Source: Eledone cirrhosa (Eukaryota). From it: 64,000 bases of DNA. Each line of letters starts with the position of its first letter. Position 1 is the first letter of the stretch. The position numbers and the translations under genes are program-made. The notes under the pieces were generated by a model. The model made no database searches and was not told the origin of the DNA. It saw only the letters and a list, made by a program, of their open reading frames with translations. The DNA lies in contig OZ024740.1 of NCBI GenBank assembly GCA_964016885.1, positions 405,480,001-405,544,000 on the forward strand, given 5' to 3'. This document shows positions 273 to 61,053 of this stretch, piece by piece.

Positions 273-283
273 CCCCCACGAGC

Positions 284-940: not shown

Positions 941-954
941 AAGATGGTATATAA

Positions 955-1272: not shown

Positions 1273-1529
1273 AATTCAAAAAGGTGCTCGTGTTACGTCC
1301 ACTTTCCACACAGGCATGTGTTGGATGGGTTGTCACAATCTGAGACCAGACATATCGGAGCGACCTTATCTTGCTCATACATTACATATTTGGCATGGTT
1401 TCTATAGCTGGATGCCCTTTCTGGCGTAACCACTCTAGAGTGTTTACTGAGTGTATTGTTTTTGTGATACCAGCACAACCACTTTATACAGTTGACTAGG
1501 TATATTCTATCAAGGCACCAACACTAACA

Positions 1530-2110: not shown

Positions 2111-2271
2111 CCATGGGGCTGAATCAATGACTAGTACTAAAGTGGTCGTCATAGGAAGCATGTGCGTGTGTGTGTTTATGTTTGCTTTTCATTTTTAAGT
2201 AAAGTCAATTTTAAGGTACAACTGCTAAATTTAGTTTTCTCTCTTTATATATATATATATATATATATATA

Positions 2272-2790: not shown

Positions 2791-4299
2791 AGTACAAAGT
2801 GAAACCTACTAAAGGAATATAATAGACAAAATCCATGGGTCTGAAAATCAGAGACATGAGGGCAGCCGAACATTTATTATATTCCTTTGTTATATTTTGA
2901 ATACCAGATGATGTCACCAGATTCATTCTGAACCCGGTCATTGAAATGATCATAGTATAATAAACCTTTTAATGAATTACACCAGTCCAGCCTCCTGTTA
3001 TTTTATAATAATTAACTCCGTACTCGCACCACCAACTACACAAACGAAGACGGGTGAGTTGCATTACGTCGAGTGCTCTCCATAATATTACATCGAGGTT
3101 GACCATACGGAATGACCAGTTCTATCCAGTGGTGAACCAACAAACCTAAAAAAAAATATATAGAGAGAGAGAGGGGGGGGGGGGGGAAATTGCTCTTGTG
3201 TTTTGTTCATAACAAACCTTACAGATACAAACATAAATAGTCTGTACTTTAGAAAGTACAGTGTGTAATCACTATTATTAATATACAAGTTCAACAGAGG
3301 TAATTCCGTTACTCTGGTCATAAACTTCTGTCTAATATTGTTTCATGAATGTCTTCCATGTGGCCCAATTCTCTTTGCTCCTCTCTCTCTCTTGGTCTCT
3401 CTCACTGCCAGACCAATGAAATTCATCTCATTACAGAAGTTTGGAAAATACATTTTTAATAATACTTTTGCAAGCAAACACACACATACACATCATACCT
3501 AATACACAACGTCAAACGATTCAACTGTGTTTATTTGTTCTTCGTGTATTGTCGTATAACTTTGAAGAAAGTTATATTTAATAAATTAGTAACATAACGG
3601 CTTTGTATTGCCATTTTAAAACTCAGCAGGCCAAAATTACTCAACAACAGGTTTCAAATTTTGGTCAGCAGAAAAAAAAAGCAAAATTTTGTTGACCAGT
3701 GTGCAATCTCTTGTAGCTATGGGTGGAGTCAATATGGATTAGCCCATAGCTAAGAAACTTGACATGATAGAAAAACAATATTACCATTTTTAAACTCAGT
3801 GGTACCAAATTACTTAGGAACAGGTCTCCCACTTAGATCTCCAGAAAAAAAGCAAAATTTTGTTGACCAGTGTAATTGTAATTGTTTAAGTATCAGTATT
3901 GTTTCTATGTGTATATACTTGTATGTTCATATACTTTCTGAGTGTAACTATATGGATTGTTCTAGTGGGAAATGTGTGTATATATATATCCATATATAGA
4001 GAGATTTTGTGTTTAGTCTATATAGAGGTGTGGTGCAGTATTGTTAATGATGTATGCATTATTAATGTAGCTTATTGTGTTTAACTGTATTTGGGTGTAA
4101 TTTGATGACATCACCATTTTACGTCTATTTTCCACACTAGCATGGGTTAGACGAGTTGTTCTGATGTGGGCAATGCTAGGTCAGGTGACTGATTTTGGCT
4201 TGTGTACATAAATATGCCTAAGACTGGTTTGTCGACTAAGGTAGTTGTAAGATAGTGGTATTTTGTGTGTCCAAGCTTGTATTCCTCCCTGCTATATGG

Positions 4300-4790
4300 C
4301 GGTGGGATTGTATATGGGGGATCTGCTGAAAAATTCCGTTTTTGTATTTAGATATTTATCAGAGGTCTTTAGACCCTGCAATATTCTAAATTTTTCGGTC
4401 AAGCAAAGTGAACACCTCGTAAGGGCGTGATTTTAGCCAAAATATTCCAGTTAATTGTGTATGGGATCCCTTTATCCTTCAGGTACCACACACAACTTGC
4501 CAGTACCATGGCCATCCTCATTTTCTGATGTTTGAATGATGTGATATGTGAGTACTTCCGTTGTTTGAACCGACCTTGTGTCATATCCACATATCATTCT
4601 CTGCTCTCTGTGTGTGATTGGTTATAGTTGGTATGGTAGTAGCTTCATATATGTCCAACTTGAGGTTACATTTTTGTTGCAGAGGGCATTTTTTTCATCC
4701 TGGGCTTACATCAGATTCATTTCTATTTGTAATTTTTGCCTTCATGGAAAGACTACAGGTGTAGCTGACCTTCAACTGCTTGTTTGAAAT
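4300..4790 (-). mobile_element. Penelope-like element relic (GIY-YIG endonuclease region)
   Basis: CPLQQKCNLKLDIYEA...(Y)xGMTQGRFKQRKYSHITSFKH...LASCVWYLKDKGIPYTINWNILAK fits the GIY-YIG module of Penelope-like elements. It contains a frameshift. Confidence 0.6.
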
Positions 4791-10401: not shown

Positions 10402-11832
10402 ATGCCAAAGTTAAAGTCAAATTCACCTCGTGGACGAGAATGCGAGCACTCCTCTTTGTTTCGTCCGCAGATGGCTAACATAACCCTATCTACCCCGCCC
10501 CCCACCACCCCCACCCTCCAAACGCAACCCAAAACTTCAGAGTTGGTACCATTAATGTAGGCACCCTAAAGGGTCGCGCTAAAGAGGTTGTAGAAATGCT
10601 TGAACGTAAGGAGGTCGATGTTTGTTGTATTCAAGAGACCAGGTGGAGGGGTGGGTCTGCTAGATTCATTGAGGGTAAAAAACGATGTTATAAGCTTTTC
10701 TGGGTGGGAAACGACGATGGGCTGGGTGGAGTAGGAATCATGGTAGCAGAAAAGTGGGCAGATAAGATAATAGACGTAAATAGAGTGAACGACAGAATAA
10801 TTAAAATACGACTTGTCCTCAATAGAACTACGGTGACAGTAATATCTGCGTACGCACCCCAATCCGAACTGCCCGGCACTATAAAAGACAGATTCTATGA
10901 GACACTGTTGCTAACTACCTCCCAAATATCTGACAGTGACTATATAATTATTGCAGGCGACTTAAATGGTCACGTTGGACAACATTGTGACGGCTACGAC
11001 GAAATCCATGGAGGCTATGGGTTTGGTACTAGAAATGAGGAAGGCTCCAGAATCCTGGAATTCTGTGATGCAAATAACCTAACTATCTGTAACACTAACT
11101 TCAAAAAACGTGACAATCACCTGATCACCTATAGATCCGGGGAACACACAAGCCAGGTAGATTATATCCTTACCAGAAGACGTGACAGAGTGTCTGTTGT
11201 AAACACTAAATCCCTCCCCCATGAAGAATGCACCTCCCAACATAGACTGATAATTAGCGACCTCATAGTCAGGACGAGACGTACTCGACAGCAGAAGAGG
11301 ACTATCCTCAGGAGGAAAATATGGAAACTAAAGGACCCCACAGTCAGAAATAAATTTCAAAGCATATTACTTGATGCTTTCGACAGTAAGGAAGAGCATC
11401 TAGAATCGGACAATATAGAGGGACAGTGGGAATTTCTGAAAGCAAACCTGCTGATGGCGGCAGACGAAGTCTGTGGCTGGAGCAGGCCTGTAGGCAGGAG
11501 GAGAGTAACATGGTGGTGGAACAGTAGGGTGGAGGGGTCAATTAAGGCCAAAAAGCAGGCTTGGAAAGTATGGCGGGATGGGGAAGTAGAGTAGACTATC
11601 AAGTGGCCAGGAGGGAAGCTAGGAGAGAAGTGTACTTAGCAAGAAGGGAAGCTGAGGAAAGAAAGTTCAAGCATGTTCTACAACGCGATGACCAAAAACG
11701 TGAGGTGTTCAGGATTGCTAGGCAGTCCTATGCGAGCAAGACAATCACTCTTGCCTCAAGTGGGACTACCCCCGTCCAAACCCATGCAAGCATGGAACAC
11801 GGACGTTAAACGTTGATGATGATGATGATGAT
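10402..11832 (+). mobile_element. RTE LINE (family R1) 5' part: APE endonuclease joined by internal deletion to the 3' UTR and (GAT)n tail
   Basis: FRVGTINVGTL, CCIQETRW, ISAYAPQ, AGDLNGHVG, QVDYIL, TSQHRL are APE motifs (ORF 10596-11594). There are frameshifts near 10533 and 11580. After VFRIARQ (11724) the sequence switches to the R1 3' UTR. No RT is present. Confidence 0.9.
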
Positions 11833-15811: not shown

Positions 15812-16347
15812 TTAATTTGATGTTGAAGAATTCTTTTTTTTTGTTAAAATTTGTGAAACTAGCTTTATAAATTTGGGATTTTTCAATATTTTCAAATGGT
15901 CAGCTTTTGGAACAACATAATGGTGAACAGGTTGCTTCTGTTGCTTTGACCATTTCAGACAGCCGAGCAAACTTGGTAAATTCACTGTACCGTCTCCTGG
16001 TCCATATATTGTCTTAGGTTGAACATTAGGATACCGTTTACCATAAATAAAACTAGCAGGAGTAGGTACCTCAATTCCATGTATACAATGAACTTCTACT
16101 CCAGGAGGTCGCAGGTCTTTCACAAGACCCTCAGTGTCTTTACGCATGTCATAACCAGTTGTAAAGTTCAAATCTTTAAAAAACTGCTGGTAATCATTAA
16201 CAGTATAATTGCGTCCAGGATGAGAAACAAGTATTTCATCTGATTTCCAGAAAGTATCGTATGGCATAAGCCAAGCTGTTGAAGATGCAGTTCTCTGGTA
16301 TTTCCGAACAATATTATCTTTCAGTATACTAATTCCAAGATTATCCC
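15812..16347 (-). CDS. PLA2G15: Group XV phospholipase A2 / LCAT-like, coding exon 6 (last)
   Basis: Acceptor tttag|GG GAT AAT. Encodes GDNLG...PPGVEVHCIHG...GDGTVN (catalytic Asp)...ADHLKIL (catalytic His). TAA at 15812-15814. 536 nt. Confidence 0.95.
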
Positions 16348-26770: not shown

Positions 26771-27400
26771 AATGTGCCAATACAAGCACTGACATAGCAT
26801 GTGGCAACCTCTCTAGTGCCATGACAAAATTCACTCAGTACACCTTGTAAAGTGTTAGTGTTAGTGTTAGTGTTGGTGCCATGATAAGATGCACCCAGTC
26901 CACTCTGCTAGCATGGAAAGCAGACGCAAAATGATGATGATGATGATAATCTAGTAATACCCAATGTGTGTTGGCCTATTAGTCCAATGTCACATTTGAC
27001 AACATATAGTGAGAAAGAGAATTAACACTTGAACATAGTGGCAGGCAAAGTGTGAGAGAGACAAAGAAATGATGTCCTGGAGCACACAGAAGTAATTGTC
27101 TTTTGCAGAGTGTTTGTACAACATTATGTTTTCTTTTAATTTATTTACCTTCTATTACCCATAGTGGAAAATGTATATTCCTAAAATAACACTTGAACAT
27201 ATGATGGGTAACATTCTAGTTTCTATATAATTCCTTAGTACATCCTGGTGTGAGAAAAATGCTTCATTTTATAAAAGTATGCAACCTATGTTGCAGAAAT
27301 TTTATGTCGAAGAAATATGGCAAGCTTGTGCCAATTTCCATTATGTAATAAAATTAAACATACCAGAATCTAAAAAAAAAGACAAGGGAAGATAACTCAA

Positions 27401-27590
27401 ATAATTGTTTCTACTTTTGGCATAAGGCCAGCAATTAACCAGTGTATTACTGGTACTTTATTTTATCGACCCCATAAGGATGAAAGGCAAAGTTAACCTC
27501 GGTGGGATTTGAACTCAGAATGGCAAGAGCCGTAACTCTATGCGTCAAAGCATGGCATCCGACCCTCTACCGATACTGCCAATCCACCAA
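27401..27590 (-). mobile_element. SINE S1 in intron 1
   Basis: Reverse complement closely matches 30418-30604. Confidence 0.85.
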
Positions 27591-29474: not shown

Positions 29475-29590
29475 AGTCTGAGTTCAAATCCCACCGAGGT
29501 TAACTTTGCCTTTCATCCTTACGGGGTCGATAAAATAAAGTACCAGTAATGTACTGGGTAATTGCTGGCCTTGTGCCAATAGTAGAAACA
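29475..29590 (+). mobile_element. 5'-truncated SINE S1 with 18-bp TSD
   Basis: ATTATATTATCAAATATA at 29457-29474 and 29591-29608. Confidence 0.9.
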
Positions 29591-30149
29591 ATTATATTAT
29601 CAAATATACTATACATACATTCATATACTGTATACATCGCTATTTCAGAACACCAATATTAATACCTAATTTGTGCTTCACCGGCAACCACTCTGTTTAA
29701 TCAGCTCTTTAAATATTATTGGAATTCTATAAGAATCCAGCTTCTATAATTCTCAGTAGAGGCGAAAGAGTGAGTAGTCTTGATAACTGCTTATGAGCGA
29801 GAAACAGGACTGTTGATTACTCCCCTTCGTTTTTGTCGAGAATAAGTAACATAGTCACTACTTTAAAATTCATAGCGAATGGTCTTCAAAATGTTTTTAA
29901 TTAAACATACATATATACATTTAATTAAACATTCATAGATACATTGAGAGCACCAATAGAAAGATATATATATCCAGGGAGTGTAACATGAAGTTACTGT
30001 AGGTTCACCCAGGTGAGCACTCGATGTTTAGATTCACATCTGTAGCAAGGTGTAGAGCTAAACAGAATGTAAATATAATAATACATGGACGATTTGTTAT
30101 GCCTTCATTACAACAAATCATTCTTGTATTGTATATATATCATCATTAC

Positions 30150-30312
30150 CGTTGGACGCTATGCTTTCCAGCATAGTTATGTCTCTTTACGGTCTGAGTT
30201 CAAGTCCCGCCGAGGTTAACTTTGCCTTTCATCCTTACGGAGTCGATAAAATAAAGTACCAGTAATGTACTGGGTAATTGCTGGCCTTGTGCCAAAAGTA
30301 GAAACAATTATC
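30150..30312 (+). mobile_element. SINE S1 (5'-truncated)
   Basis: B-box GAGTTCAAGTCC, family core and TAGAAACAATTAT tail. Confidence 0.85.
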
Positions 30313-30413
30313 ATATATATACAAAGAGAGATTAGGAAGTTTTTCAATGTATGTATGTGTATGTGATATACATACATTCACACAAACGCACATTATTTGT
30401 TTATTAAAATATA

Positions 30414-30610
30414 GGGCGGTGGATTGGCAGTATCGGTAGAGGGTCGGACACCATGCTTTCCAGCATAGTTATGTCCCTTTACAATCTGAGTTCAAATCCC
30501 GCCGAGGTTGACTTTACCTTTCATCCTTACGGGGTCGATAAAATAAAGTACCAGTAATACACTGGGTAATTGCTGGCCTTGTGCCTAAAGTAGAAACAAT
30601 TATTATTATA
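30414..30610 (+). mobile_element. Full-length SINE S1
   Basis: A-box TGGCAGTATCGG, B-box GAGTTCAAATCC, core CCTTTCATCCTTACGGGGTCGATAAAATAAAGTACC (resembles the MetaSINE domain as I recall it), and (ATT)n tail. Confidence 0.85.
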
Positions 30611-30769
30611 TATACTGTAAATGTGGGCGTTAGGAAGGGCAACCAGAGACACCCCTATATGAGCAAGACACGGTCACCCGACACAACTTGCCTCAAAAAT
30701 AGGACCCGTCTAACCCATGCTAGCATGGAAGATGGATGTTAATCGATGATGATGATGATATATATATCA

Positions 30770-37898: not shown

Positions 37899-38055
37899 TT
37901 GGATTTATGCCAGGTAGGGGTACGACCAATGCTCTCTTTCTAGTGAGAAAACTACAGAAGAGATACTTAGCTAAGAGTTAGCCACTGTGTGTACTATTTG
38001 TAGATCTGAAGAAAGCCTTTGGCAGGGTACCAAACTCTATAATCTGATTGGCACT
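37899..38055 (+). mobile_element. RTE LINE RT, left half (split by Gypsy A)
   Basis: GFMPGRGTTNALFLVRKLQKRYLAK...FVDLKKAFGRVPNSII*LAL, continuing at 44744 as ALKKLVVDEWLVRAMQ. Confidence 0.9.
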
Positions 38056-39154
38056 TTAGGAGATTAGTATCGGTGTACACATAAAATTATTATAAAAGAC
38101 AGTAAATACCGGTGTGTGTTGTAATAATGTTTTTACTTCATAGAAGTCAAAGGTATTAAATGTTAAGAATTCGTTACCCGATGGTCACAACTCCAGGCTG
38201 AAGTTGGTAGAGAAAAGAAGAGATCTTTTCTAGCTGGTGTTAACATCTTAGGCTCTCAGGCTGAAAGTTGCATTGTTCTTGGTAGCGAAGGATTATCAAA
38301 AATGAATCATCTCAAGCTAAGGTCGCAGGTGTTACCACTTCGGAAATCAGGAGGCAAGAGAGATATCGTGGTGACCTGTTCCTTTTATAGGAGATGACCG
38401 GAAGTGACCAACAGGGAGTCTGTCAATCCCAAAGGGAAGCAACTCCAGCTACTTCCTGTCTAGAGAGCGATGATGAGATTGTCATGACAAGGGAGGCAAC
38501 TGTTGCTACATTATCTCCTGCCAGATTTTTAAAACATAAAAAATCGAAAGAAGCATGCATGGAGTAAGATGGCGAGCATGTAAGAGGCATGAAAATTATG
38601 ATACAATGTAATAAAAGTAAGAGAAGAGGTCAAAAGTTCAAATATCTAAAATACAATTCACATGTGTGCAATCACATGACAGCAGTAAAGAATGTGTTCC
38701 AGATAATGAATGCAGGTGGTTTCTGGTCTGTGGTATAACATGAAATTTCCAACTTCCGAAGGGAATTTCTCACAGGCAGAGTGCTGCAGAAATAAATTGT
38801 CTGGCTTGTTCTGCTGGTTTTAGTTGTTGATGAAGCTGTGTTGTTGTTGTTGATGAAGCTGTGTTGTTGTTGTTGTTGTTGTTGATGTTGTGAATGCGTT
38901 GACCTGGAAGGGTCAAGAGGCCAACGACCAGAGAAATAAGCATTCTTAATAAATGCGCGGTTTTCAACGGCAAATTTACGTGGTAAATTTATAAACCGGC
39001 AAATAGAAGAATATAGTTTAAAATGTTCGTTGTAAAGGAAACGAAAAACATATATATATACATCCAGTGAAATGGTAATGAGAGGTACATTGTAATACAA
39101 TAAATCAATAAATAACAAGAACAGAAAAAAAAATATAAGGCTCCAATGGCCAGT

Positions 39155-42100
39155 TCACATAAAAATAGTTTGGCAGAACTTTTGGGGCCAGTGGACTCTC
39201 CGACCGGAACGGGTCGTAGTCTTGTATGTAGGTGAAGGTGTGGCAGAAGGAGCAGGTGTATGCACAAGAGAGAAAGATTGGGGTATTTGTGGCTCGGGTG
39301 TATGAGCGTCATTGTGTGCCCTTTTCAGTCTATCCACCGAAATTGTTTCTCTGGACCCCTTAACGTCTACAGTGAAATGTTTTTCAGTGCGTGCTAACAC
39401 ACGGTAGGGTCCAGAGTATGGTTGTGTGAGGGGTGGTCTCACAGCATCGTTCCTTACGAACACATGGGTCCACGAGGCAATATCCCTCGGGACCGCAGGT
39501 TTTACAGTTTGCTTCCTCGTATCCATCGGCGGCAGATCCTGAAAATAAGAACGCAGACGGGATACGTAGGAAAGCGGATCTTGGAAAGCAAGATCAACAG
39601 GGACAAGCATTTGCCCAGGCAACGTTAGAGGAGCACCGTAAATTAATTCGGCCGGGGAGAACCCAAGGTCCTCCTTTATTGATGACCGAATTCTTAATAA
39701 CACAATAGGAAGGTACTCGCTCCAACGTTGAGAGTCTGGATAGGCGCGAAGAGCGGCCTTTAATTGGCGGTGGAATCGTTCCACCATTCCATTTGAAGCA
39801 GGGTGATTGGCTGTGGTCCGAATCCGTTGAGCTCCAATTATTTTTGTGAGCTCAGAGAAGAGATGGGACTCGAATTGTCTACCACGGTCTGTGGTGAGTG
39901 TAGTTGGTACCCCAAAGCGGGTAACCACCCTGATACCAGTGCACGTGCTACAGTCTCAGCAGTCATGTCTTGTAAAGGGATGGCTTCAGGCCATCGCGAA
40001 AAACGATCGACACACGTCAATATGTAAGAATATCCACCTCTGAATGGCCAAGGTCCGACGATGTCAATGTGGATGTGTTGAAACCGAGCATCTGGAGTAC
40101 TGAAAGTACCAAGTGGAGTCCGGATGCGTCTATGGATCTTCCATTTCTGGCAAGCGATACAGGAACGGCACCAAGCAGCAATGTCGCGCCTCATATTTGG
40201 CCAGAAGAATCTGGCTGTTATAAGTTTAACTGTGGCAGCAGATCCTGGATGAGAAATGTTGTACAAAGCCAGGAACACAATTCGACGGTGAGTCTCAGGA
40301 ACAAGTGGTCGTGGTGCATCAGTAGATACATCACATAGAATCTGCCTGTCGGTGGTGGACAAGGGCAGATATTTGAAAATGCAAGTCGCAAATTCAGTAG
40401 AAAGAGTGTCCAACGATTGGAGTGCAGGTTGGTCTGCAACTAAACGACCTAAGTCGATCTCCTGGGATGACGAGATGGAGCTAATTGGCAAACGTGACAA
40501 TGCGTCTGCAACTATGTTGTGCGAGCCGGCAATGTGCTGGATATCGTTTGTAAATTGTGAAACGTAGTCCAGGTGCCTTGTCTCTCTGGGCGAATATCTG
40601 TCGGCTTTGGCCCTCAAAGCGAAGGTCAACGGTTTGTGGTCGGTAAAAACCGTAAAAGTTCTCCCCTCAAGAATATGAGAGAAATGTTTCACCGACAGAT
40701 ATATGGCTAATAATTCCCGCCCAAACGTGCTATAACGCGTTTCTGCTGGTTTCAACTTCCTCGAGAAAAATGCCAAAGGTTGGTTTTCAGCGTAAGACTG
40801 TTGTAAAACTGCTCCCACAGCGGTATCAGATGCATCAACACAAAGCGAAAGCTTGGCCTCTGGTACCGGGTGGGCTAGCAAAGAAGAACTAGCGAGTGCT
40901 GTCTTGGCAGACTGGAAGTCCTGAAGCTGTCCTTGTGTCAAGGAAATGTCTTCATTCTTCTTACGACGATTTTTTAAAATGTCAGTAAGGGAAGATAGCC
41001 AATTAGCACAATGAGGAATGAAACGCCTATAGAAATTGATTAGGCCTAAGAAGTGACGCAACTGGTGAAGTGTAGTAGGCGGAGGTAACTCCTGTATGGC
41101 TTGAACTCGCTGAGGAAGCGGCCTAATACCTTCGGCGTCGATGAGGTGGCCTAAAAAATGTAGGGAAGTGGAACCGAAAACACACTTTGCAGGATTCACG
41201 CGAACGCGGTAATCCTGAAGTCGCCGAAATAAGAGAAGCATGTGGTGCATATGCTCTTCCGGAGAGGAACTAGCGACGAGAATATCGCCTATGTAAGCAT
41301 AAACGAAGTCCAGACCACGCGTGACCTCGTCTATGAACCGCTGAAAAGTGCTAGCGGCGTTCCTGAGTCCAAAAGGCATGGTCAAAAATTCGAATGATCC
41401 GAAAGGGGTTGTAATCGCAGTTTTCGGAATATCCTCCTTCCTGACCGGAATTTGGTGGTAGGCTCGCACTAAATCTAACTTAGAAAAAATCTTACACCCC
41501 TGCAGTGAAGATGCAAAATCGTGGAGATGGGGAATGGGATACCTATCCGGGACGGTCATGGCATTTAACCTCCTATAATCCCTCGTGGGTCTCCAGTCGC
41601 CGGAAGTCTTGGGCACCATGTGTAACGGTGAAGCCCAAGGACTCGTAGATGGGCGAATAATGCCCAGCTGCAGCATATGGTCGAACTCGGACCGTGCTGC
41701 CTTTAATTTTTCCGTCGGTAAGCGGCGTGGACGCGAAAACACTGGAGCACCGGTGGTGGAAACGAAATGTTGGGTCGAGTGTGTTGGGTCAGTGACTCGA
41801 AAATTTCCATCTGTGAGCTCTGGGAAAGAACCCAGCAACGCATGGTAGGCGTCTCCAGCGGCAGCGACAAAGAACATGGGGCTGACTATTGGAGCATTGG
41901 CTTCCTGGCCGTGAATTGAAAAGCCGGTGGTGTTATCCACCAGGCGTTGGCCACGGACGTCCACAGTTAAGGAGAAGTTGTGGAGGAAATCCGCTCCTAA
42001 GATGGGATATGGCAAATCGGCAACCGTAAAAATCCACTTAAAATCCCTTCGAAGATTTAAGAATTTAAGAGGGAGCGAGATTTGCCCGTACGTCTTTATA

Positions 42101-42300
42101 GACGACTGGTTAACTGCCTGCAGCGTAACAGATGACTCTATGGGGGTATCTTTCAGGCAATGGACCGGCCAAATACTACAGGAGGCTCCTGTATCCACGA
42201 GGAAACCTCTTCCGGACATTAGGTCCTTAATGAAGAAATGGCGGTTTGGTGACTTTATGTTGAGGTCAGCTGTCCCCATCAGCGGACCTCTTAGGCGTTT
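39155..42300 (-). pseudogene. pol: Gypsy pol (protease, RT, RNase H, integrase)
   Basis: FLVDTGA; MPFGLRNA; RT catalytic motif mutated to YIGD; VDASD and RELLA; integrase HPG..CIAC, HIDIVG, TDRGRQF, NGMVER. Frameshift near 39928. Confidence 0.95.
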
Positions 42301-42303
42301 CCC
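42262..42303 (-). promoter_or_regulatory. Putative -1 ribosomal frameshift signal
   Basis: G GGA AAC heptamer (42297-42303), 6-nt spacer containing the gag stop, then hairpin GAGGTC-C-GCTG-ATGGGGA-CAGC-T-GACCTC. pol is in the -1 frame. Confidence 0.8.
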
Positions 42304-43803
42304 GCCTTATGAAAGGAGCAAGGTTGCACGCAGTGACTCGCGTTCTCAGCAAATCACTCGTGGTACCAGCATAAAGATGAAGCTGGTGACTTAGAACGCC
42401 GTCTAAAACTTTGCGATCTCCCGCGACTGCGGGGGCGCGAACAGCCACCACACAAGGCCTTCATCTTGTGGAGCTCTATGGTGAGCTCCTGAATGGACCT
42501 TTGCATCGCTATAATGGTCGAGCTGTCTGTTGGCGTAGATCGCATGGCCGTGTGTGGCCCGAGCTGGGTGGTGAACAGCGGCAAGGGGGTCGCTGCCTCT
42601 GCATTCGTCACCTCGAAAACTTTGTCCGCATATGCGGCAAGCTGATCCACCGTGCTTGTATCACTCATGGGGGCCAAAATTGCCTGTACGTTGGTCGGCA
42701 GGCGCGAGAAGAACAACTGCTTCAGCAGGACAATTTCCGCTGCAGACCCCTCCGTTAGGTCCTTCATTCGCCTAAGGAGGTTCGATGGGGTGCCATCCCC
42801 TATATGTTCCAGATGGACCAGAGCCCTAAATCTCTTTTCTGAAGACTGTTCTGTCCGGCTGAGTATTTCAGCCTTCAGAGACGTATAGCGGAGAACTCGT
42901 TTTTGAAAGTGTTCGTTGTAGGAAACGAGAAACATATATATATCGTGAAATGCGACAGTTAGTTGATGCGTGAGAGAAAAAGTCTGTCTGAACGCGAATT
43001 TCACATGTGCGTGGTGTGTTCGTTTCTTGGAGAAACATATATATATATATCGTGAAATGCGACAGTTAGTTGATGCGCGAGAGAAAAAGTCTGTCTGCAC
43101 GAAAGTTTCACATGTGCGTGTGTGCGTTTCTTTGACTGAGTATTTTCATAGTTTGTCAATAAATTTGCTGTGTATTCGTAATGTTACTCACACAACACCA
43201 GATTTTGCTATTTTTTGTTGGGGGGGGGGGGGGGGCGACGACCACTTATACCAATGAACGGCTGCGTGTTCGTATCACGTCAGGGTTACCAATATAGCGG
43301 AGAACTCGTGTGTATGAATGTAACAAGGAGACATGGTTTGTGTGTATAATATTTAATCAACAATTTAACAGTATAGTTGACATGTCAATGAATAAACGAA
43401 AGAATGAAGCAAAGTTAGTAGTTACCGTTTTGATTGCCAGGCAAACGCGAGACGCCTGGCGAAGGCCAGGCGCCGGAAGGGCAAATGAGAGAGTGAGAAC
43501 TTAAAGTTGTTAGTTTTATAGGGTTCTGACCGGAAGTTACAGAAAGGGTTCTACTTCCTGTCTAGATGGTGTTGTGAGTGTCACAACAAGGGAGGCAACT
43601 GCTACAGACGTTTACGACGAGTCTGTGGTTGTCTCTAACACGAGGTCCTTAACCGCTGGGAGAATTGCCGGCGGAATTGCGCTAAGGACCACAGAATGTT
43701 GTAGTTCCTCGTCAACTCTGTTCGCCCTGAAGAATGCTTCTAACTGGGCGAACCATAGCCTCACGTCGCCCGTGTACGTTGGCAGAACAGAGTGGGAAGC
43801 CAT
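42291..43803 (-). pseudogene. gag: Gypsy gag, interrupted by element C
   Basis: LPTYTGDVRLWFAQLEAFF...[insertion]...TSLKAEILSR...IGDGTPSNLLRRM...LFFSRLP...CWYH..C..PC. Premature stops at 43612-43614 and 42354-42356. Confidence 0.9.
42885..43606 (-). mobile_element. Non-autonomous LTR element C (relative of B), internally deleted, inserted in gag
   Basis: TSD GACGT at 42880-42884 and 43607-43611. 5' LTR 43294-43606. Only 16 bp of the 3' LTR remain (42885-42900). Extended PBS at 43260-43291. Internal region matches 36650-36990. Confidence 0.92.
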
Positions 43804-44743
43804 TGGTATACCGTAGGCAATCTACCGTTTGGAAAAATATCTCTAACGTAACAGAAAAGGAAAACAAAATCGCTTATATCTCCGTCAAACCACTGGACCG
43901 GAAAAATAATGCATCCGGGACATATGCAAACAAGCGATTAAGTGAATGCTGTTATACTAAGGTAAGGGCAAGGAACCTAAAAAAAAAATCCAACATGGCG
44001 GACTATTTCGCGCCAAAAACATTATTGATGGAGAAGAGAGACTCCATCTTGTCATCCTCAAAAATTTTTAGCCAGAGAAGAGAAGGGCAGAAAAGGAGAG
44101 AAAAAAAAAGGCAAAAACATTTATACAATTGCTGTTTGTCTGTGTGTCAATAATTGTAGGTGTTCGTTTTGTATTAAATTGTTATATTTTTCTCTTTTTC
44201 TTCTGTCTTTCTTTTTTTTTACTTTCTACACCATATACCATTTCCCATTTTTTTTTTTTTTTTTTAAATCACATCGGGGGTCACCACTTTAGGAGATTAG
44301 TATCGGTGTACACATAAAATTATTATAAAAGACAGTAAATACCGGTGTGTGTTGTAATAATGTTTTTACTTCATAGAAGTCAAAGGTATTAAATGTTAAG
44401 AATTCGTTACCCGATGGTCACAACTCCAGGCTGAAGTTGGTAGAGAAAAGAAGAGATCTTTTCTAGCTGGTGTTAACATCTTAGGCTCTCAGGCTGAAAG
44501 TTGCATTGTTCTTGGTAGCGAAGGATTATCAAAAATGAATCATCTCAAGCTAAGGTCGCAGGTGTTACCACTTCGGAAATCAGGAGGCAAGAGAGATATC
44601 GTGGTGACCTGTTCCTTTTATAGGAGGTGACCGGAAGTGACCAACAGGGAGTCTGTCAATCCCAAAGAGAAGCAACTCCAGCTACTTCCTGTCTAGAGAG
44701 TGGTGATGAGATTGTCATGACAAGGGAGGCAACTGTTGCTACA

Positions 44744-45800
44744 GCACTTAAGAAGCTAGTTGTAGATGAATGGCTTGTGAGGGCCATGCAGACCATGTAT
44801 AGAGAAGCAATAAACAGAGTGAAAGTTGGCAATGAGTACAGTAATGAATTTGAAGTGAATGTGGGTATACACCAAGGATCAGTCCTCAGTCCACTCCTGT
44901 TTATCATTGTATTTCAAACCAACATTGAGGAGTTTAAAACTGGCACTCCATGGGAGCTCCTATATGCTGATGACCTAGTCCTCATAGCTGAATCTGTAGG
45001 AGAGTTAGAAGCAAAATCTCAAGCATGGAAGAAGAACCTAGAGTTGCAAGGCCTAAAATTAAATTTAGCGAAAACAAAAGTCCTAAGTAGGAAAGAAGAC
45101 AGGAAGGTTATACCATGAGGAAATTAACCTTGTTTAATATGGCAGAAGAGGTGGGCAGAAATTCCATAAGGTACACACAAGAGATGTAGTGGTATTTCAG
45201 GTAGGCTAACAGCTCCACGGAGGAAGTGAGCACAAAGAGCAAACCTGAAATAGATTCCCTCAGCTGCCAGGGAAGCTCCATAAAAATTTTTGACAGCTTT
45301 TGCTACCTAGGTGATCAAATTAGCAGTGGGGGAGGGTGTGCCAAAAGAGTGATAGCTAGGATAAGAACAGGCTAGGAGAGGTTTAGAGACCTATTACCAA
45401 TACTAACAACAAAATGCTTTTCTCTCAGAGTGAAGGGCAGACTGTGTGTAAACTGCAATGTTATACTGCAGTGAAACATGGGCCATGGCTGCAGAGGCTA
45501 GAAAGAAATGAGTCAAATATGCTCCAATGAATGCGTAATGTTAGTTTACATGAGCGACATAGCAGAAACAAACAGAGAGAAAAACTTAGCATAAGAAAAA
45601 TTGAATGTAGTGTGCAAAAGAGAAGTCTGCGTTGGTATGACATGTGATGTGGACTGAAGAGGCAGACACAGAAAGACATGGGATGAGGTTGTGAGGACTG
45701 ACCTTATAAAAACTAAACCTCTCAATAGAAATGACTAAAGACCACGAGGGCTGGCGTTATGTGGTGCCGAAGAAGACCTGACCTGCAACATACAATGTGG
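44744..45800 (+). mobile_element. RTE LINE RT, right half
   Basis: GIHQGSVLSPLLF, LLYADDLVL, GLKLNLAKTK, then a degraded C-terminus. Confidence 0.9.
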
Positions 45801-48639: not shown

Positions 48640-50880
48640 TGATTTGTATCCAGGGTCATTTGTGTCAGGGACCACACATGACAAGGGACTGCTGGGAGGC
48701 GAAGCCTGAAATAATTTGCTACTGATATAAGTAGGCAGGCCACATTGCCAACAACTGCAACCGAGGAAACAGTAAAAAGGGGAGTTACTGTACCAGTAGC
48801 TACCCCTGGAAGCGAGTAGAGGCGCTCTTGCAGTTGCTACTCATAGTGGATGGGAAGCTCTCATGAGTCCTTGTGAACAGTCTGCACAACAACACTAGTG
48901 ACCTCAGAGGTGCTTAAAAAGTGGAGTGGATGAGTGGTGTAAGGGCAGTTGATGGCAGGGAGATTGGATGCAGAGGTAGAGATGGCAGTACAAGGAATGA
49001 AAATAAGGCTACAGGTGATCATGATCAACCATGTGGTGGTTGGAACTGATGTGGTAATGGCCATGGATGTGATTGGCTGATTAGGAAACATTACAGTGAG
49101 TGAGAATGGGGTAACATGTGGTAGCATGGGATCAGCATGCACCGTGAATGTGCTACAGGGGAACAAGGACAGCCATGAAGAAAAATGTGCTGTTTATACC
49201 ATTCAAGATAAGTATTTCTGGGCTGTGTTCGATTATCAGCAATGGATAGTTGAGTGGTACTGGAAAAAAGAGTATCTAACATTGAAGAACAGAGGGAGCT
49301 GCTATCACCATGCCCTGAGAGGGGATGCTAGAAGTGAATTTGGAGAAGAGGTGCAAAGATGGATTGAGTGGGGCATATTAATCCCTTGGAAGGAGGAAAT
49401 ACAGAGCGGAGTATTGCTGTTAATGGCAGTCGTGCAACCAGCAAAGAACAAAGTCAGGACAGTGCTGGACATTCATGAATTGAATGAACACGTGTCACGC
49501 CACACAAGTGGCGAGGTTAGAGATATCTGCGAGGAAACCTTACGAGAGTGGAGACAAATGACTGGGACTTCCACAATTGTCAACTTAAAGTCAGCATATA
49601 TGCAGCTACATGTAGCTGAGAAATTGTGGAGGTATAAGGGCTTGACCAGGCTGGGGTTCAGGTTGAATTCAGCACCAAAGATCATGGTGACGGTTCTCAA
49701 GACCATTTTGGAGAAGGTGTACAAGGTGGAGAGGGCCACCAATTCCTTCATCGACGATATTTTGGTAGATGAGACCGTGGTGTCAGCAGCAGAGGTCTCA
49801 AGCCACCTAGGAAGGTATGGGTAGATGAGACCGTGGTGTCAGCAACAGAGGTCTCAAGCCACCTAGGAAGGTATGGGTAGATGAGACCGTGGTGTCAGCA
49901 ACAGAGGTCTCAAGCCACCTAGGAAGGTATGGGTAGATGAGACCGTGGTGTTAGTAACAGAGGTCTCAAGCCACCTAGGAAGGTATGGGTAGATGAGACC
50001 GTGGTGTCAGCAGCAGAGGTCTCAAGCCACCTAGGAAGGTATGGGTAGATGAGACCGTGGTGTCAGCAACAGAGGTCTCAAGCCACCTAGGAAGGTATGG
50101 GTAGATGAGACCGTGGTGTCAGCAGCAGAGGTCTCAAGCCACCTAGGAAGGTTCAGTTTAATCATAAAACTGCCAGAGGCAATGGAAGAGGGAGCTGTAT
50201 TGGGACTCAGGCAGCAAAGGGACAAGATGGTATTTTGGATGGGAAATGAAGTCCCAGAACTGGACACCAGCAAATTGGTGGGACACTATCCAATTGTGGG
50301 GGTCGCTCTGAACAGCATGCAGCTATGTCTAGAGACAGGCAGATGGGGTCAGCTGGGAGACAGAGTGAGAGAAAGGACAATAGCCATGCTGTAGGAGAGG
50401 GTAGAGGTGGAAAACCCAGTAAGAGGAAGCTGATATATACCCAAATTGGAGAACGGGACCATACAATGTCATGCCAGCAGCATAGTGCTTGGGGTCGCTC
50501 TGGAAATAGGGGATGTTGAGGTTGAGAATTCAGCCTGAATAAGGAAGGAGAACTGCAACCACATCAATGTGGCTGACTTGAACACCATGCTGAAGGGAGT
50601 GAATCTCGGCCTGAGATGGGGCTGTGCACCATAGAGATAAATACTGATTCAGCCACTGTACTCAGATGGGTGAGAGGAGGGTGAAAATGAGAAGGGCAGC
50701 AGAAATGTTAATAAAATGCCATCTGGGAACTCTGGGAGAGCTGGCAGCTGAGTTCGGCCTGAAGTTGAGTGTGGTTTTTGTGCCCTCGGAGAAGAATAGG
50801 TTAGACATCCTAACCAAGGTCAAGAAAGCCTGGCTGGAAGTGGAAGAAGATGTGAAAATGGGGATAGCTACAGTGTGACT
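48640..50880 (+). mobile_element. Degraded Gypsy-like gag-pol (family D)
   Basis: Two degenerate CCHC knuckles (C..GPHMTRDC; ICY...GHIANNC), RT (KVRTVLDIHELN, LTRLGFRLNSAPKIM, FIDDILV) and RNase H remnants (NHINVA, TDSATV). Confidence 0.8.
49764..50152 (+). repeat. 56-bp tandem repeat, ~7 copies, within the RT
   Basis: GTAGATGAGACC... starts at 49765, 49821, 49877, 49933, 49989, 50045 and 50101. Confidence 0.97.
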
Positions 50881-52094
50881 CATGTGGAGACACAATGCTA
50901 GGTCCCTTTGCTTCCTCCGACACTATTTTAGTCCTGTATCATTTAGCCTTTGTTTCTATGAGGTTCATCTCCTGGCAGCATATTTCCTGCCAGTTTCTGC
51001 AATCTGTGGCAGTTTTTCAATGGAACTTGGGCTTATCAAACATCTTTTACCATGAAGTCTTCAATTTTTATAGTTAAATTATTAGCTAGTCTTTCTGCTC
51101 ACTTATCATATGATTTCCTAAGTGTATTATGCTGAAATCCTTTGGAGATATACAACTTGTATTTTTGTTGTTCATTACACTTCTACTTCAGTTATCAAGC
51201 ATCAGAGATACTATTCATCGTTCTGTTGTTTTCTTTAAAGCAAGAATTGAATTCTTGCAGCAGAGGTTACTAAATTTTTCTGCTATATGTTTTCACTGCA
51301 AAACCTTCATCAGAACCTTTTCATTGAGTGTTATTGCTTGATATAGCCATCTTCTTTTTCTTTTCATAAATGATGATGATGATGTGTGCACCTCTCTATT
51401 GCTGGTGAAGGTTTCCCTACTATCAAATATATAGCTCATTTTTCAGAGATCTAATGGCAGTTCAAACTTCAGAGAATATTTGCATGAATTTGAGGTTTTG
51501 GATAGAAGGTTAAGTCAGTTTATCTGGGCCACAGTAGTCAACTATATAGTTTGACATCTGAATCTATCTATTTGCCTAAATTCTGTGTAAGTCATGTTTC
51601 TTAGAGACCAGCTCCTCAATTAATGGATGATTTAAAGAAACATTACAATATATATGTATGTATGTATTATTAAAGACACAATGAGGGAGGGGATTAGATA
51701 GATTCATATGACAGAGAATAAATTAAAATTTTATCCTTTAGTATTTTACCATAACACAAAAGGTGTCTTGATGGACACAGTTCCTTGCCACATCAAGCTG
51801 AAACCTTTACAGCCCATGTTATAACATGCTCATTCCTTTCAAACAAAGACACAGATGTATAACATCCCAAAACACTACTAGAAACACCATAGCCACCCAC
51901 TGAACAAACATAAAAACACATATGCTGAGAAATACCATCACCCTCAATTACCTCACTAACCCCAAACGCTGAACTGATAAAAGCAGAGTAACTGCAGTTG
52001 TTGTACTTTGTCTGAGTCCATCTTGCCTACCTCCACTGTGACAAACATTAAAATCTACAGGCACATAGGAACAGACAAGTCAAGGGAAGTAACT

Positions 52095-52542
52095 CTTTCT
52101 AACATTAGCACAAGGTAAGCAATTTGGAGAAAAGGAAAATGGAATTATATTGATTCCTGTACAGAACTGATACTTTATTTTATTGACCCTGGAAGAATGA
52201 AAGGCAAAGTTGACCTCGACTGGATTTGAACTTACAATATAGTAAGTCATAACTTAATACCATAAAGTGTTCTGTTGAATACTCTAACTACTCTGCCAAA
52301 CCACTGCCCTAAAGGTTAGAGGAAATAATTGTTTCTACTTTAGGCACAAGGCCAACAATTTGAAGGAGAGGGGAAAGTTGATTAAATCGACCCCAGTGCA
52401 TTAGTAGTGCTTTATCAACCCCGAAAGGATGAAAGGCAAAGCTAACTTTGGTAAGATTTGAACTTGGAACGCAAAGCGCTGTAACTCTATGCTGCATAGC
52501 ATATTGTCCGACATTCTATCGATACTGCCAATCCACTGCCCC
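52095..52542 (-). mobile_element. Two tandem SINE S1 copies
   Basis: Core ATGAAAGGCAAAG...GATTTGAACT at ~52197 and ~52429. Confidence 0.8.
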
Positions 52543-54395: not shown

Positions 54396-55150
54396 GCACA
54401 GCCCAAACACTTCCCCACCCCTGGCATAGAGCGTATCACCCCCTTCCTTTCCTCTGTGGCCTCATAGTCCCCCCCCCCCTTCCTCTCATTTATGGTATTT
54501 ATAGCCCTTTTTCCTACTTTCCTTTACAGTCAGATCTGCCTTTCTTTACCCCTTCCCCCTGTATCCATTTCTTGGTTTTGTTTTATTCTTTTTTTTCTTT
54601 TTTCTTTTTCTTTCATATTTCCATCAAAATTTGCAATGCTATTTACTGCGAATTGATTTATTGTCTGTAATTCTATTAAATTACAAAAAATAAAAAAAAT
54701 TATAAACTTTTATATTCATTGTTCATGTATTTTATGATGTAAACATTTTCAGCACATTCTTTGTGAGCTTGTTACTAACACAATTCTCTTTACAATGAAA
54801 TTATGTCAGTGACCAGGTCACAAATCTAACAAAAGTTTTGAGACCATGAAATAAATGAAAAGTGAAAATATCAGTTTTTGTGTTTTTTGAATGACTAAAA
54901 TGATTCTTCCATGATTTAACTGCTTTAGTCTCAACATAATCACAAAGCAAGTCACTTGCCAAACAAGTACAACTCTGAACTCTGAAATTTAATCATAACC
55001 AGATTCCAAGTAATTCCATTGTAGTTTTGTTACAGAGCTACTTCCTATTTAATTCCAGTTCTGAACATGTATTCATTTAATTTTCACTGTTTCGTTTTTA
55101 TCTCTTGACCGAACCACATGACCCTGATCTTCTAAACAACATTATTATGT

Positions 55151-55221
55151 ATACTCACCTGGCATAGGGGTTAACCATGATCAGCTAGGTGGTTCCCCCA
55201 AAGTGAGGCCCTTCTGTTGCA
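55151..55221 (+). pseudogene. U1: U1 snRNA retro-pseudogene, 5' ~71 nt
   Basis: ATACTCACCTGGCATAGGGGTTAACCATGATCAGCTAGGTGGTTCCCCCAAAGTGAGGCCCTTCTGTTGCA follows the invertebrate U1 5' end (ATACTTACCTGG, stem-loop I, start of loop II TTGCA). Truncated before the Sm site. Confidence 0.88.
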
Positions 55222-55222
55222 A

Positions 55223-55440
55223 GGGCAGTGGATTGGTAGAATCGGTAGAGCGTCGGATACTCTGCTTCGCGGCATAGAGTTATGTCCCTTTAAGTTCTGA
55301 GTTCAAATCCCTCAGAGGTTAGCTTTTCTTTTCATCCTTACAGGGTCGATAAAATAGAGCACCAGTAATGTACTAGAGCTGATTTAATCGACTTTTCCCT
55401 TCCCCAAAATTGCTAGCCTTGTGCCTAAATCAGAAACCAT
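55223..55440 (+). mobile_element. Full-length SINE S1 fused to the U1 fragment
   Basis: GGGCAGTGGATTGGTAGAATCGG A-box, GAGTTCAAATCC B-box, core and tail. Confidence 0.88.
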
Positions 55441-56024
55441 TATTATGGAAGCATGATAAAAAAGAAAAAAAGCAGAGAACTTTAATGATATTTAGTTTCC
55501 ATGCCAACATGAAAAGGAAGATATCTCTGTAGTGTAGCCAGATGTGACTTGTTTCTCTTACTCCACAATAATTAAATACCCCACCCTCTGCCAATATGCC
55601 CTTTCCATTACCCTCTACATCACTATCTAACCTCCCCTTTCCCCTTCCTCATACCTCCATCCCTTGTGCAATTCATACCAATAGGGAATTATAGAACCCC
55701 CCCCCATCCCAGTATACCTTCTCACTCCTCCACTCACATCCCTGAATTTCCATCTCCTTGTCCAACCATGCCAGTATAGAAAGATAAATGCACCTCGCAA
55801 TCTACTGCCAACCATCACTCTTTAAGATCACCTCTCCCTCTCACCTCCTCCCCCAACAAACATGTGGACGCCCTTTATCCCACTGCTATCACTGCCTCCC
55901 CAGCCTGGCCAAGGACACAATAAGTGCCCTAGTGTTTAAAAATGTGAAACTGCAGACTTTTTAGTCACATGACTAATCCTGGTCCAGGTAACAGTATATG
56001 AACAGTAATATGAATTAATTAACA

Positions 56025-56337: not shown

Positions 56338-56960
56338 AAACTGTATACAGCTATGGTACGACCACACTTGGAATTCGCATCACCAGTCTGAAACCCCTAT
56401 CTTGTTCAGAACATTGACCGCCTGGAAACTGTTCAGAGACATGCAACCAAGCGCATACCCTCCATCAGACACCTACCATACTCTGAACGCCTTGCTTCCC
56501 TGGGCATGGGTTCATTGAAGCTCCGACGTCTGGCAATGGACTTGGTAAACACCCACAAAGTTATTAACCATCTCGCCAACAACAACCCTGAGCACCTTTT
56601 TGATCTCCATGTGTCTAACACACGTGGACATGCCTACAAAATCAGAAAACAGCACAGCTCCCATGACTTTCGGAAACATTTTTTCACGCTCAGAGTTGCT
56701 GAAGCATGGAACAAACTGCCTGCGTCAGTTGTTAGCTGCCGAGACACTGCATCCTTTAAAACACTCATGCTTCCCAAAATACGCCAAAACTACACCTGAT
56801 GTCCCCCTTCCATACACATGCACACATGTGTATATCATGACTCATGCACTGTTTATTTTCCTGACGTTTGTACATTACCCTATGTACTATACATACACTG
56901 TTTGATGAGTTGTAGTGCACCTGAGCACTGTACACAATATTTCATTATTATTATTATTAT
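56338..56960 (+). mobile_element. CR1/L2-group LINE 3' end
   Basis: LYTAMVRPHLEFASPV*NPY...LETVQRHATKRIP...TRGHAYKI...AWNKLP, with (ATT)n tail. Confidence 0.9.
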
Positions 56961-57218
56961 TCCTACTGTTGACAGTGAGTAACCAATATCTTGTGAGGCT
57001 TTAATAAATGCTGAAAATTGTCAGAAGGATCTCATTTTCTGTCTACAGAGAGAAAGGACCTCTGTTTTAAGTATGTGTTTATAAAAACATATGCTAATAA
57101 ATTTACCTTACATTTCTGCTTATCCTGTCCATGTGCACTGTTTCTATTAATTAATTAAATCACATTGATAGCAATTGCATTGTTTTAGAAATTAGGAAAA
57201 CTAATTTTGTTCTATCAG

Positions 57219-57390
57219 AGTTTGCATATACTATAATTTTGCCTTATATCTCTAGTTTGCATATACTATAATTTTGCCTTATATCTCTAGTTTGCATATA
57301 CTATAATTTTGCCTTATATCTCTAGTTTGCATATACTATAATTTTGCCTTATATCTCTAGTTTGCATATACTATAATTTTGCCTTATATC
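57219..57390. repeat. 35-bp minisatellite, ~5 copies
   Basis: TTTGCATATACTATAATTTTGCCTTATATCTCTAG at 57221, 57256, 57291, 57326 and 57361 (last copy partial). Confidence 0.97.
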
Positions 57391-58593: not shown

Positions 58594-60630
58594 ATCAATC
58601 ATCATCATCATCAACGTTTAACGTCCGTGTTCCACGCTTGCATGGGTTTGGACGGGGGTATTCCCACTTGAGGCAAGAGTGATTGTCTTGCTCGCATAGG
58701 ACTGTCTGGCAGGTTTTCTACAGTTGGATGCCCTTCCTAACACCAACCACATTTACAGTGTGGGTCTGGGAGGTTTTTACCGTGTTGCCTACACGGCCAC
58801 ATTACAGCGTGGACTGTCTGGCAGGTTTTCTACAGTTGGATGCCCTTCCTAACACCAACCACATTTACAGTGTGGGTCTGGGAGGTTTTTACCGTGTTGC
58901 CTACACGGCCACATTACAGCGTGGACTGTGTGTTTTTTTGTCGTGACACCTACATGATCTCATTTGTTTCGGCCTAGATGTTGTGGCACCAACATAACTT
59001 TACATAGGAGGGGGTGGTGTGGATGGGGTGTGGGTGGTGGGACGGGGGTGTATTTTGTTAGAGATGCCTACTGGCTGTAGTAGGTTTTACTATGTATTTA
59101 GGTAAGGCGGGTCTTCTCTATTACTGAGTACCGCCAAAGGTCTCGGTCCAGTGACATTGTCTTGGAGAGGTGTAAGTGTGTGAGGTCGGAGTTTATCAGC
59201 TCGTCCCAGGATTTTCTAGGTCTGCCTATTCCGTGGCTACCGTCTATCTTTATTGCCCTGCACTTTGTTATACAGCTATCGACTTTCATGCACATCACGT
59301 GTCCGTACCAATGTAGCCTTCTCTCGAGTAAACAACATCTGATCCCTCTTATTTCTAATTTTTTCCTTAGTTCGTTTATGCTTTGCCGTTCACGTATATT
59401 ACTATTACACATCCAGCGGAGCATGCAAGCTTCGTTCCTCTCTAGTCTGCGTATATCCTCTGCGCACAATGCCCAGGTCTCACTGCCATGCAACATTGCT
59501 GTTCGTATGCAGGCATCATACAACCTGCCTTTCATTTTTAGGGAGAACCCTTTAGCGGCTAATAGTGGTATAAGCTCTCTGAACTTTTTCCATCCAGTTC
59601 TGACTCTAGCTACTGTACTTTCGGAGCACCCTCCCCCACTGCTGATTTTGTCACCCAGGTAACGGAAGCTGTCCACTATTTCTATAGAGCCCTCTGCGCA
59701 ATTGAAAGAGTTAGTATTTTGTGGGCACTCGCTGCTACTTATTGCACCAGAGCACCGCCCACATGTAAAATCTAAGTTCTTAGTTAGCTTACCTGTGATC
59801 CCACTACATCTTTTATGCACCCATACTTTGCATTTGGGACATAAAACCTACGCCTTTCCTACACACTGAGCATGGCCATTTCCCGGAAGGGACCGCCACC
59901 TTATTTTCTTTCCTACAAACTAGAACTTTAGTCTTAGCCAGGTTAATTTTAAGGCCTTTTGATTCTAGGCCGTGCTTCCATGTTTGGAATTTCTTCTCTA
60001 GCTCGGCCATTGATTCAGCTATGAGAGTCAGGTCGTCTGCGTATAGGAGTTCCCATGGGCAGCCGGTCTTGAACTCCTCTGTTATAGCCTGAAGGGCAAT
60101 AATAAATAGTAGAGGGCTGAGAACAGAGCCCTGATGGACGCCAACTTTTACGCTAAACTCTTCACTATATTCGTTGTTAATTCTAACCTTGCTGACTGTT
60201 TCTTTATACATGGCTTGTATAGCTCTCACAAGCCATTCGTCGACACCTAGTTTTCTAAGGGCCCACCAGATAATGGAACGGGGGACTCTGTCGAAGGCTT
60301 TCTCCAAGTCGACAAAAGCTAAGTAGAGGGGTTTACCTTTAGCTAGGTACTTCTCCTGTAGTTGACGTACAATGAAAAGAGCGTCTGTGGTACTTTTGCC
60401 TGACACAAACCCGAACTGCATTTCATCTAGGTCAATTCTCTCTCTGATTAGTTGCGCTATTACTTTTTCTGTGACCTTCATGACCTGGTCGATTAATTTA
60501 ATGCCTTTATAGTTACTCCTATCTAGGGCATCTCCTTTACCCTTGTAGCAGTTAATGATGATGCTGCTACGCCAGTCCTTCGGAACAACCCCATTCTGTA
60601 CGACTTGGTTAACTATCCGGGTGACCAAGG
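58594..60630 (-). mobile_element. 5'-truncated RTE LINE (family R1): RT, PHD-like finger, 3' UTR and (GAT)n tail
   Basis: ORFs 59813-60628 and 59098-59820: FVDLEKAFD, GVHQGSVLSPLLF, LLYADDL. One frameshift near 59843. Confidence 0.95.
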
Positions 60631-60658
60631 TGTATATATTATATTTTCAGAAAGAAAG

Positions 60659-61040
60659 GGTGGTGGATTAGCAGAATTGTTAGAGGGTTCGACAGAATGC
60701 TTTGCAACTTTCCTGAGTTCAAATCCAGCTGAGATCAACTTTGCCTTTCATCTTTCCAAGATCAATAAAATAAAGTACTAGTGAAACACTGGGATCAATT
60801 TAATCAACTTTCCTCTCCCCTAAACTTGTTAGCCTCGTGCCTAAATCATAAACCATTATTTATTTCGTGTTCCTATTATATTTTCAGAAAGAAAGTGTGC
60901 TGGGTTGGTAGAATCATTAGAGCATAAGACAGAATGTTTTGTGGCATTCACTTATGTCTCTTTATATTTTGAGTTCAAATCCCACTGAGGTCAACTTTGC
61001 TTTCCATTCCCATTTAGTGTCAATAAAATAAAGTACCAGT
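60659..61040 (+). mobile_element. Two tandem SINE S1 copies; the first is flanked by a 22-bp direct repeat
   Basis: TATTATATTTTCAGAAAGAAAG at 60637-60658 and 60874-60895. Confidence 0.8.
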
Positions 61041-61053
61041 TTATTTACCTTAA

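Follow-up and report, generated by a model that had tools for sequence, protein, structure and literature searches.

How the 5' part of a U1 snRNA came to stand directly in front of a complete SINE, and whether it took one insertion or two, is the question raised by the locus described here. The sequence analysed, called the window below, is a stretch of 64,000 nucleotides of AT-rich, repeat-laden animal DNA. On protein similarity, its host is an octopod, since one LCAT-family exon (15812-16339, minus strand) is closest to Octopus vulgaris/sinensis, with 80% identity to group XV phospholipase A2, and to Argonauta hians (75%), as against about 50-58% for proteins named as those of other molluscs. 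The unit, whose features are collected in Table 1, is probably a chimeric retrocopy made in one LINE-driven insertion, in which the RT would have proceeded through the SINE as far as its 5' end before switching to U1 in loop II. This retrocopy is likely dead.

Table 1. Features of the U1-SINE unit, in window coordinates (TSD, target-site duplication).
Feature	Position	Strand	Remarks
Left TSD, 10 nt, CATTATTATG	55140..55149	+	Chance 0.16%; inside 28 nt absent from the organism C ortholog
Extra T between left TSD and U1 +1	55150	+	Single unexplained base
U1 snRNA nt 1-71	55151..55221	+	Decayed; comprises the 5' end, stem-loop I and the 5' half of stem II and stops in loop II (TTGCA)
Full-length tRNA-type SINE with (ATT)n tail	55222..55446	+	Abundant octopod family; 12-14% off the majority of window copies
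A-box-like motif, internal polymerase III promoter	55234..55246	+	Consensus motif, one mismatch allowed; SINE +13
B box, GTTCAAATC	55301..55309	+	SINE +80; exact in 4 of 4 copies tested
Right TSD, 10 nt, CATTATTATG	55438..55447	+	Overlaps the SINE's natural CATTATT tail

A first, sequence-only reading of the locus had started U1 at its +1, given the fragment about 71 nt and called for a search with the U1 model. Both points hold: a cmscan of 55100-55221 against Rfam aligns 55151-55221 with positions 1-70 of the 166 of the U1 model (41.2 bits, E 1.1e-9). The score stays under the gathering score of 69.5 because the match is a fragment, cut on its 3' side. Contigs from four of 23 sequencing runs (X1, X4, X7 and X12) were also aligned to the locus, the statements made here being drawn from the best-supported rows of the resulting tables. 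A U1-like contig of about 600x from organism B aligns exactly to 55151-55221, and the alignment of a high-depth U1-like contig from organism D ends at 55221; these extents were derived from the distance-to-alignment-end column, a reading that was checked on the 337-nt contig of organism C described below. At 55215-55216, the multi-copy U1-like contigs of all four runs, which are taken for true U1 genes, read CA, against TG in the window, whose fragment has thus decayed. Among the best 40 of 197 difference rows, the U1 part differs from these contigs at at least 2 of its 71 positions, and the C at its U1 position 6 is either decay or the host's own letter. Within the same best 40 of 197 rows, the multi-copy contigs vary at the loop I positions 55184/55186: those of X1 agree with the window in having G/T, X7 and X12 both have T/T, and X4 has T/G. 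The loop I letters of all four runs appear, again in these rows, off the Rfam loop consensus, and octopod U1 may for this reason have a variant U1-70K loop.

The fragment does not look like a U1 gene. Of the features of a functional one (an RNA of about 165 nt, stems III and IV, an Sm site), only what falls within model positions 1-70 is present, and the nearest Sm-like motif lies at 56051, about 600 nt beyond the chimeric unit. The splice-site-pairing letters ACTCACCT, to which attention had been drawn, are indeed there, at 55153-55160 within the U1 5' end, but they have no functional weight, since the fragment has no Sm site. Stem-loop I of the U1 piece forms on folding; compared with shuffled sequences, neither the U1 piece (z 0.37) nor the junction (z 0.71) gives an excess folding signal. 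The insertion of a SINE into a complete U1 gene is ruled out, as nothing U1-like, and no U1 3' part, lies past the SINE in 55430-56000. No further U1 20-mer was found elsewhere in the 64-kb window with up to 4 mismatches, and no Rfam match reaches gathering level in the whole window. An E-value scan of the window with Rfam returns U1 together with 14 below-threshold miRNA/scaRNA matches, which are taken for chance, on simple repeats.

The second partner had been described as a full-length SINE. This is borne out, with an A-box-like motif and a B box in the element; pieces akin to it were located by BLAST at about a dozen further sites across the window. The summed depth of the SINE core runs into the millions in X1 and X7. 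It is the A/B-box motifs, and these only, that suggest a tRNA origin: ARAGORN reports 0 tRNAs, and no Rfam tRNA match was obtained on the SINE head of the copy at 30413. The SINE of the chimera departs from the window majority at 23 of 188 comparable positions when all 12 others are used, and at 26 of 182 with five close copies. Runs of four T at 55324, 55329 and 55393 each include a base off the family majority; because these runs were made by private changes, this SINE copy is likely dead.

Several other arrangements of the family are seen in the window. Four copies (27400-27588, 29477-29616, 30150-30322 and 30413-30622) are 87-95% identical and have in common a 30-nt deletion in the 3' half, forming a distinct subfamily clustered within 3.3 kb. 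A head-to-tail pair is found at 52085-52542 (minus strand), the upstream copy of which has a 14-nt TSD beginning in its tail, and a tandem of two copies at 60637-61041 shows a 20-nt repeat ahead of each head, the second copy being without a tail. Tail-to-head SINE joints also occur in contigs of X1 and X7. LINE pieces are present at 59098-60646 (minus strand), 10479-11594 and 44624-45118, and include an RT (RVT_1, E 5e-32) with a weak match to PHD, together with an endonuclease of the AP type. A LINE-like 3' end with an (ATT)n tail and no Pfam match, which we take to be CR1-like from its motifs, is found at 56392-56963 and 951-1289. At 936-951 (minus strand), this CR1-like end abuts a 5'-truncated copy of the SINE. 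Twenty-eight pairwise comparisons of SINE and LINE 3' ends within the window disclosed no shared tail beyond simple repeat, the best pair being matched by 9 of 200 shuffles, and they rule out a tail shared with the LINE pieces of the window; that no partner LINE came to light there speaks against the preferred reading.

For the junction of the two parts, a gap of one nucleotide, with the SINE starting at 55223, had been proposed. The junction is in fact flush, the end of U1 at 55221 lying directly against SINE base 1 in the same orientation: that base is A55222, because an A precedes GGG in four copies (30413, 60657, 56231 and 52310) out of five others whose head is still recognisable, 52542 being the exception. 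The spare base is instead T55150, on the far side of U1, which would be either untemplated or target-derived. Around the whole, the single 10-nt TSD already recognised in the sequence-only reading stands up well, as no perfect direct repeat other than the CATTATTATG pair was found in 54900-55700 (801 nt), and just 0.16% of 127,841 window positions have, no more than 5 nt upstream, at least 10 nt matching the 3' end of the SINE. In the same interval (54900-55700), there is no inner repeat or tail at the U1/SINE junction, nor is there any TSD-type repeat directly at the U1 3' end, unlike in a truncated U1 retropseudogene. The possibility that an older SINE, or a CR1-like element, had left its tail as the left repeat was also considered. 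This was rejected: the 18 nt left of the TSD are unlike nine SINE tails and the CR1-like tail, their scores being reached by the null in 247-957 of 1000 draws.

It had been cautioned that the right repeat overlaps the natural tail of the SINE. The overlap is real, and the right TSD extends this tail by only about 3 nt, ATT-rich targets being common in the region. The objection nevertheless loses weight, because the sibling SINE at 52542-52324 has a 14-nt TSD that likewise begins in its tail, 6 nt inside ATTATT. Another sibling, at 60657-60860, has a 20-nt repeat; of the four other copies found with both head and tail, two have such repeats of 14 and 20 nt and two just 6 and 7 nt.

These data can be set against a history of two insertions, in which a 3'-truncated ('tailless') U1 retrocopy would have come first with the ATT-rich duplication around it, and a SINE, drawn to ATT sites by the pairing of its tail, would then have landed exactly at the boundary between U1 and the right TSD, without any duplication of its own. 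According to Doucet et al., 3'-truncated snRNA copies, broken in single-stranded segments, are the commonest human class, and a second insertion at the 3' end is named there as an alternative (PMC4476161). SINEs of this family do insert tail to head at ATT ends, as in the tandem 52542/52310 and in tail-to-head joints of the runs, and one X1 piece with U1 letters stops at 55222 and does not enter the SINE. A second insertion would, however, be expected to have put another ATT-type repeat at the U1/SINE boundary, precisely where the junction is flush. Among four further full-length siblings that were tested, two have repeats, of 14 and 20 nt. The ortholog in organism C carries both parts. Had it kept U1 without the SINE, or with the rest of U1, the sequence-only reading would have had to give way; such a site was looked for, and the single ortholog recovered shares the junction of the window. 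Two insertions are altogether unlikely in our judgement. The flush junction, the lack of an inner TSD or tail, the start of U1 at +1, the significant outer TSD and the lack of a U1 3' part downstream argue for one insertion with a jump in loop II, as had been suggested.

A sequence of events can be proposed on this basis, in which the mechanism, the priming and the LINE responsible are those we infer, as is the choice of a template jump over RNA ligation or two insertions. A LINE endonuclease would nick an ATT-rich site, where the (ATT)n tail of the SINE would pair; such pairing would account for a TSD starting inside the tail, an overlap seen both here and in the sibling. The RT would then copy the entire SINE, which is observed at full length, and would go on from U1 nt 71, where loop II is single-stranded, its new template being either U1 itself or a fragment of U1 cut at this place, before running to the U1 +1, both end points being those observed. 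Repair would leave the 10-nt TSD and the one extra T seen in the window. The insertion would have taken place before the split from organism C, with decay since. The U1 head would not be expected to spread, as transcripts from the internal promoter of the SINE would begin near 55222 and so lack U1. Type-2 polymerase III promoters indeed start transcription near the beginning of the element, upstream heads being omitted.

A flush junction without shared bases, with both partners at natural-looking ends, would also be produced if a U1 5' fragment had been joined to the SINE RNA by ligation before retrotransposition and the product copied as one template. The SINE is intact to its +1, however, where a polymerase III transcript bears a triphosphate, which is a poor ligation acceptor. 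RNA ligation, a named alternative for U6/L1 and Alu/L1 chimeras (PMC11838501), cannot be told from a template jump by DNA sequence alone; it appears here as the least probable of the readings considered.

The sequence-only reading had left room for a new family of snRNA-headed SINEs, which is not supported by the copy number in X1. In this run, the right flank (55420-55899) is covered without any difference at 7.5x, its single-copy depth, while the summed depth of the contigs that have the letter of the window is 12.0x at 55215 and 16.6x at 55216. From this comparison, the window-type chimera has about 1-2 copies in X1 and is not a propagating family, the figure being a rough one from a low-coverage run with patchy cover of the locus. 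Among the rows listed, no CA-type piece, that is with the U1 letters, passes 55222 in X1 or 55221 in X4 or X12. Pattern scans gave 0 matches to the junction in metagenome contigs and 0 to the SINE core in viral contigs, and the 5 matches to U1 stem-loop I were all put down to chance (27-35 of 71 letters identical); as these scans showed no trace of octopod DNA, their blanks carry no weight.

More could be learned from X7 (organism C), in which an unbroken 337-nt contig (20.7x, 89% identical) extends from 54911 through U1 to 55246, thus entering the SINE by 25 nt, and has the same U1-SINE junction at the orthologous site. As this junction is common to both, the insertion is taken to predate the split from organism C. 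Against the preferred reading, the organism C ortholog is without the 28 nt at 55122-55149, including the whole left TSD; a loss in organism C would be a simpler reading than a gain in the window lineage, in a comparison that is unpolarised without an outgroup. No empty-site joint is seen among the best 15 of 533 joints, and organisms B and D (X4 and X12) have almost no left-flank cover.

A second X7 piece carries C55215 and A55216 at distances of 37 and 36 from its end, and so spans at least 55179-55251. The 337-nt contig could give only 32 and 31, and by depth it carries the A, not the C. The second piece thereby points indirectly, through the summary column, to a second U1-SINE junction with undecayed U1 letters. 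It is probably at another locus, since an allele, which is unlikely, would have broken the unbroken 337-nt contig. Its depth is perhaps about 23x by depth arithmetic, the single-copy level in X7. This junction-spanning contig with undecayed U1 letters is the reason for raising, tentatively and as something rather less likely than its contrary, that the octopod LINE machinery recurrently caps the full-length SINE with U1 nt 1 to about 71 at loop II, which would be a template-jump hot spot, or that one chimera founded a small U1-headed subfamily in a relative.

For the window unit itself, descent from such a subfamily, SINEU-like and derived from a master chimera whose transcription an upstream promoter would have driven, is quite doubtful. 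The low copy number in X1 and the lack of CA-type pieces beyond the junction in X1, X4 and X12 are against it, and the second X7 piece, which would otherwise speak for it, could itself be single-copy. The internal promoter would moreover drop the U1 head; because a polymerase III transcript would omit it, repeated junctions are more likely to reflect repeated jumps than a master copy. According to Kojima, U1 heads have repeatedly been added to SINEU, which favours a subfamily, but independent jumps of the same kind would look alike too, as Kojima found with the U1-like extensions of 26 SINEU-2 copies (PMC4494074). The single insertion with a template jump therefore remains preferred for the window unit.

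Precedents for such a chimera are known. Kojima 2015 cites one U1/Alu and two U2/Alu chimeras (PMC4494074), and Doucet 2015 describes U6/Alu, U6atac/Alu, platypus U6/Mon-1 and six lizard U6/AnolisSINE2 chimeras, along with internally truncated U5 chimeras, the truncation falling at single-stranded segments or loops (PMC4476161). As in the snRNA/SINE chimeras so described, the snRNA of the octopod unit lies 5' of the SINE and in the same orientation, one TSD surrounds the whole, and the copy number is low. As in the U5 chimeras, a snRNA other than U6 is truncated on its 3' side (PMC4476161), and, as described for L2/Mon-1, a simple-repeat tail would prime insertion. The octopod unit differs from these precedents in its mollusc host, in a U1 that extends from the exact +1 to loop II, and in a SINE that is complete to its first base, so that the jump would be from the template end. 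It works like the known snRNA/SINE chimeras and shares the features of theirs that can be tested here, and is best read as a mollusc case of a known class (U1/Alu, U6/Mon-1, U6/AnolisSINE2). What counts against a jump onto U1 is the remark of Doucet et al. that template switching is perhaps largely limited to U6/U6atac in human (PMC4476161). Template switching has also been invoked for the exchange of SINE modules (PMC4758252, PMC5786205).

The crocodilian SINEU-1, -2 and -3 share with the octopod unit a U1-derived 5' head on a retroposon, and, according to Kojima 2015, they repeatedly gain U1 pieces by template switch. They reach high copy number, about 137-7,700 per genome, whereas the octopod chimera has 1-2 copies; their tail is poly(A), no promoter can be recognised in them and their partner is Tx1-Mar, with a Mariner target preference, in contrast to the (ATT)n tail and the A/B boxes found behind U1 here (PMC4494074). 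The unit is hence outside SINEU by its copy number, tail and promoter, the U1-derived head being the feature they have in common. With tailless snRNA retropseudogenes it shares a start at the snRNA +1 and a stop in a single-stranded segment (PMC4476161), but a full SINE stands between the end of U1 and the right repeat. An octopus SINE, OR2, is named in PMC4758252. Our literature searches found no mollusc snRNA/SINE chimera in print, the combination of U1 snRNA, octopus and cephalopod returning 0 papers. Octopus tRNA-derived SINEs, including OK and OR1, were reportedly described by Ohshima and Okada in 1994. The present family resembles these by description, not by sequence, in its octopod host, its tRNA-type head with A/B boxes and its very high copy number.

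The locus suggests that snRNA/SINE chimeras likely form in molluscs too, in this instance from U1, a rare partner in the human examples. As a single copy, the unit is a fossil, whose presence or absence can serve as a marker in the phylogeny of octopods. Should the second junction be borne out, octopods would provide a live system for studying how snRNA heads join SINEs and why most such chimeras do not spread, the internal promoter being expected to drop the head; this bears on how SINEU arose and is transcribed. Recurrent capping or a small subfamily, if true, would mean that elements of the SINEU type are also born outside crocodilians, in a mollusc.

The surroundings of the unit, next to which no gene was identified, are themselves rich in repeats. 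The left flank (54780-54990) is occupied by an unclassified repeat with a summed depth of up to 17,000x in X1, and in one 154x contig a piece that stops at 54979 is directly followed by the beginning of the SINE (55222). Further away, on the minus strand at 39155-43145, ORFs with frames of 822 and 266 aa resemble the gag/pol of an LTR retrotransposon, and a 459-nt repeat, 99% identical between its copies at 38052-38510 and 44285-44743, lies around them. There are also tandem arrays at 49764-50152 and 57202-57390, their periods being about 56 and 35 nt.
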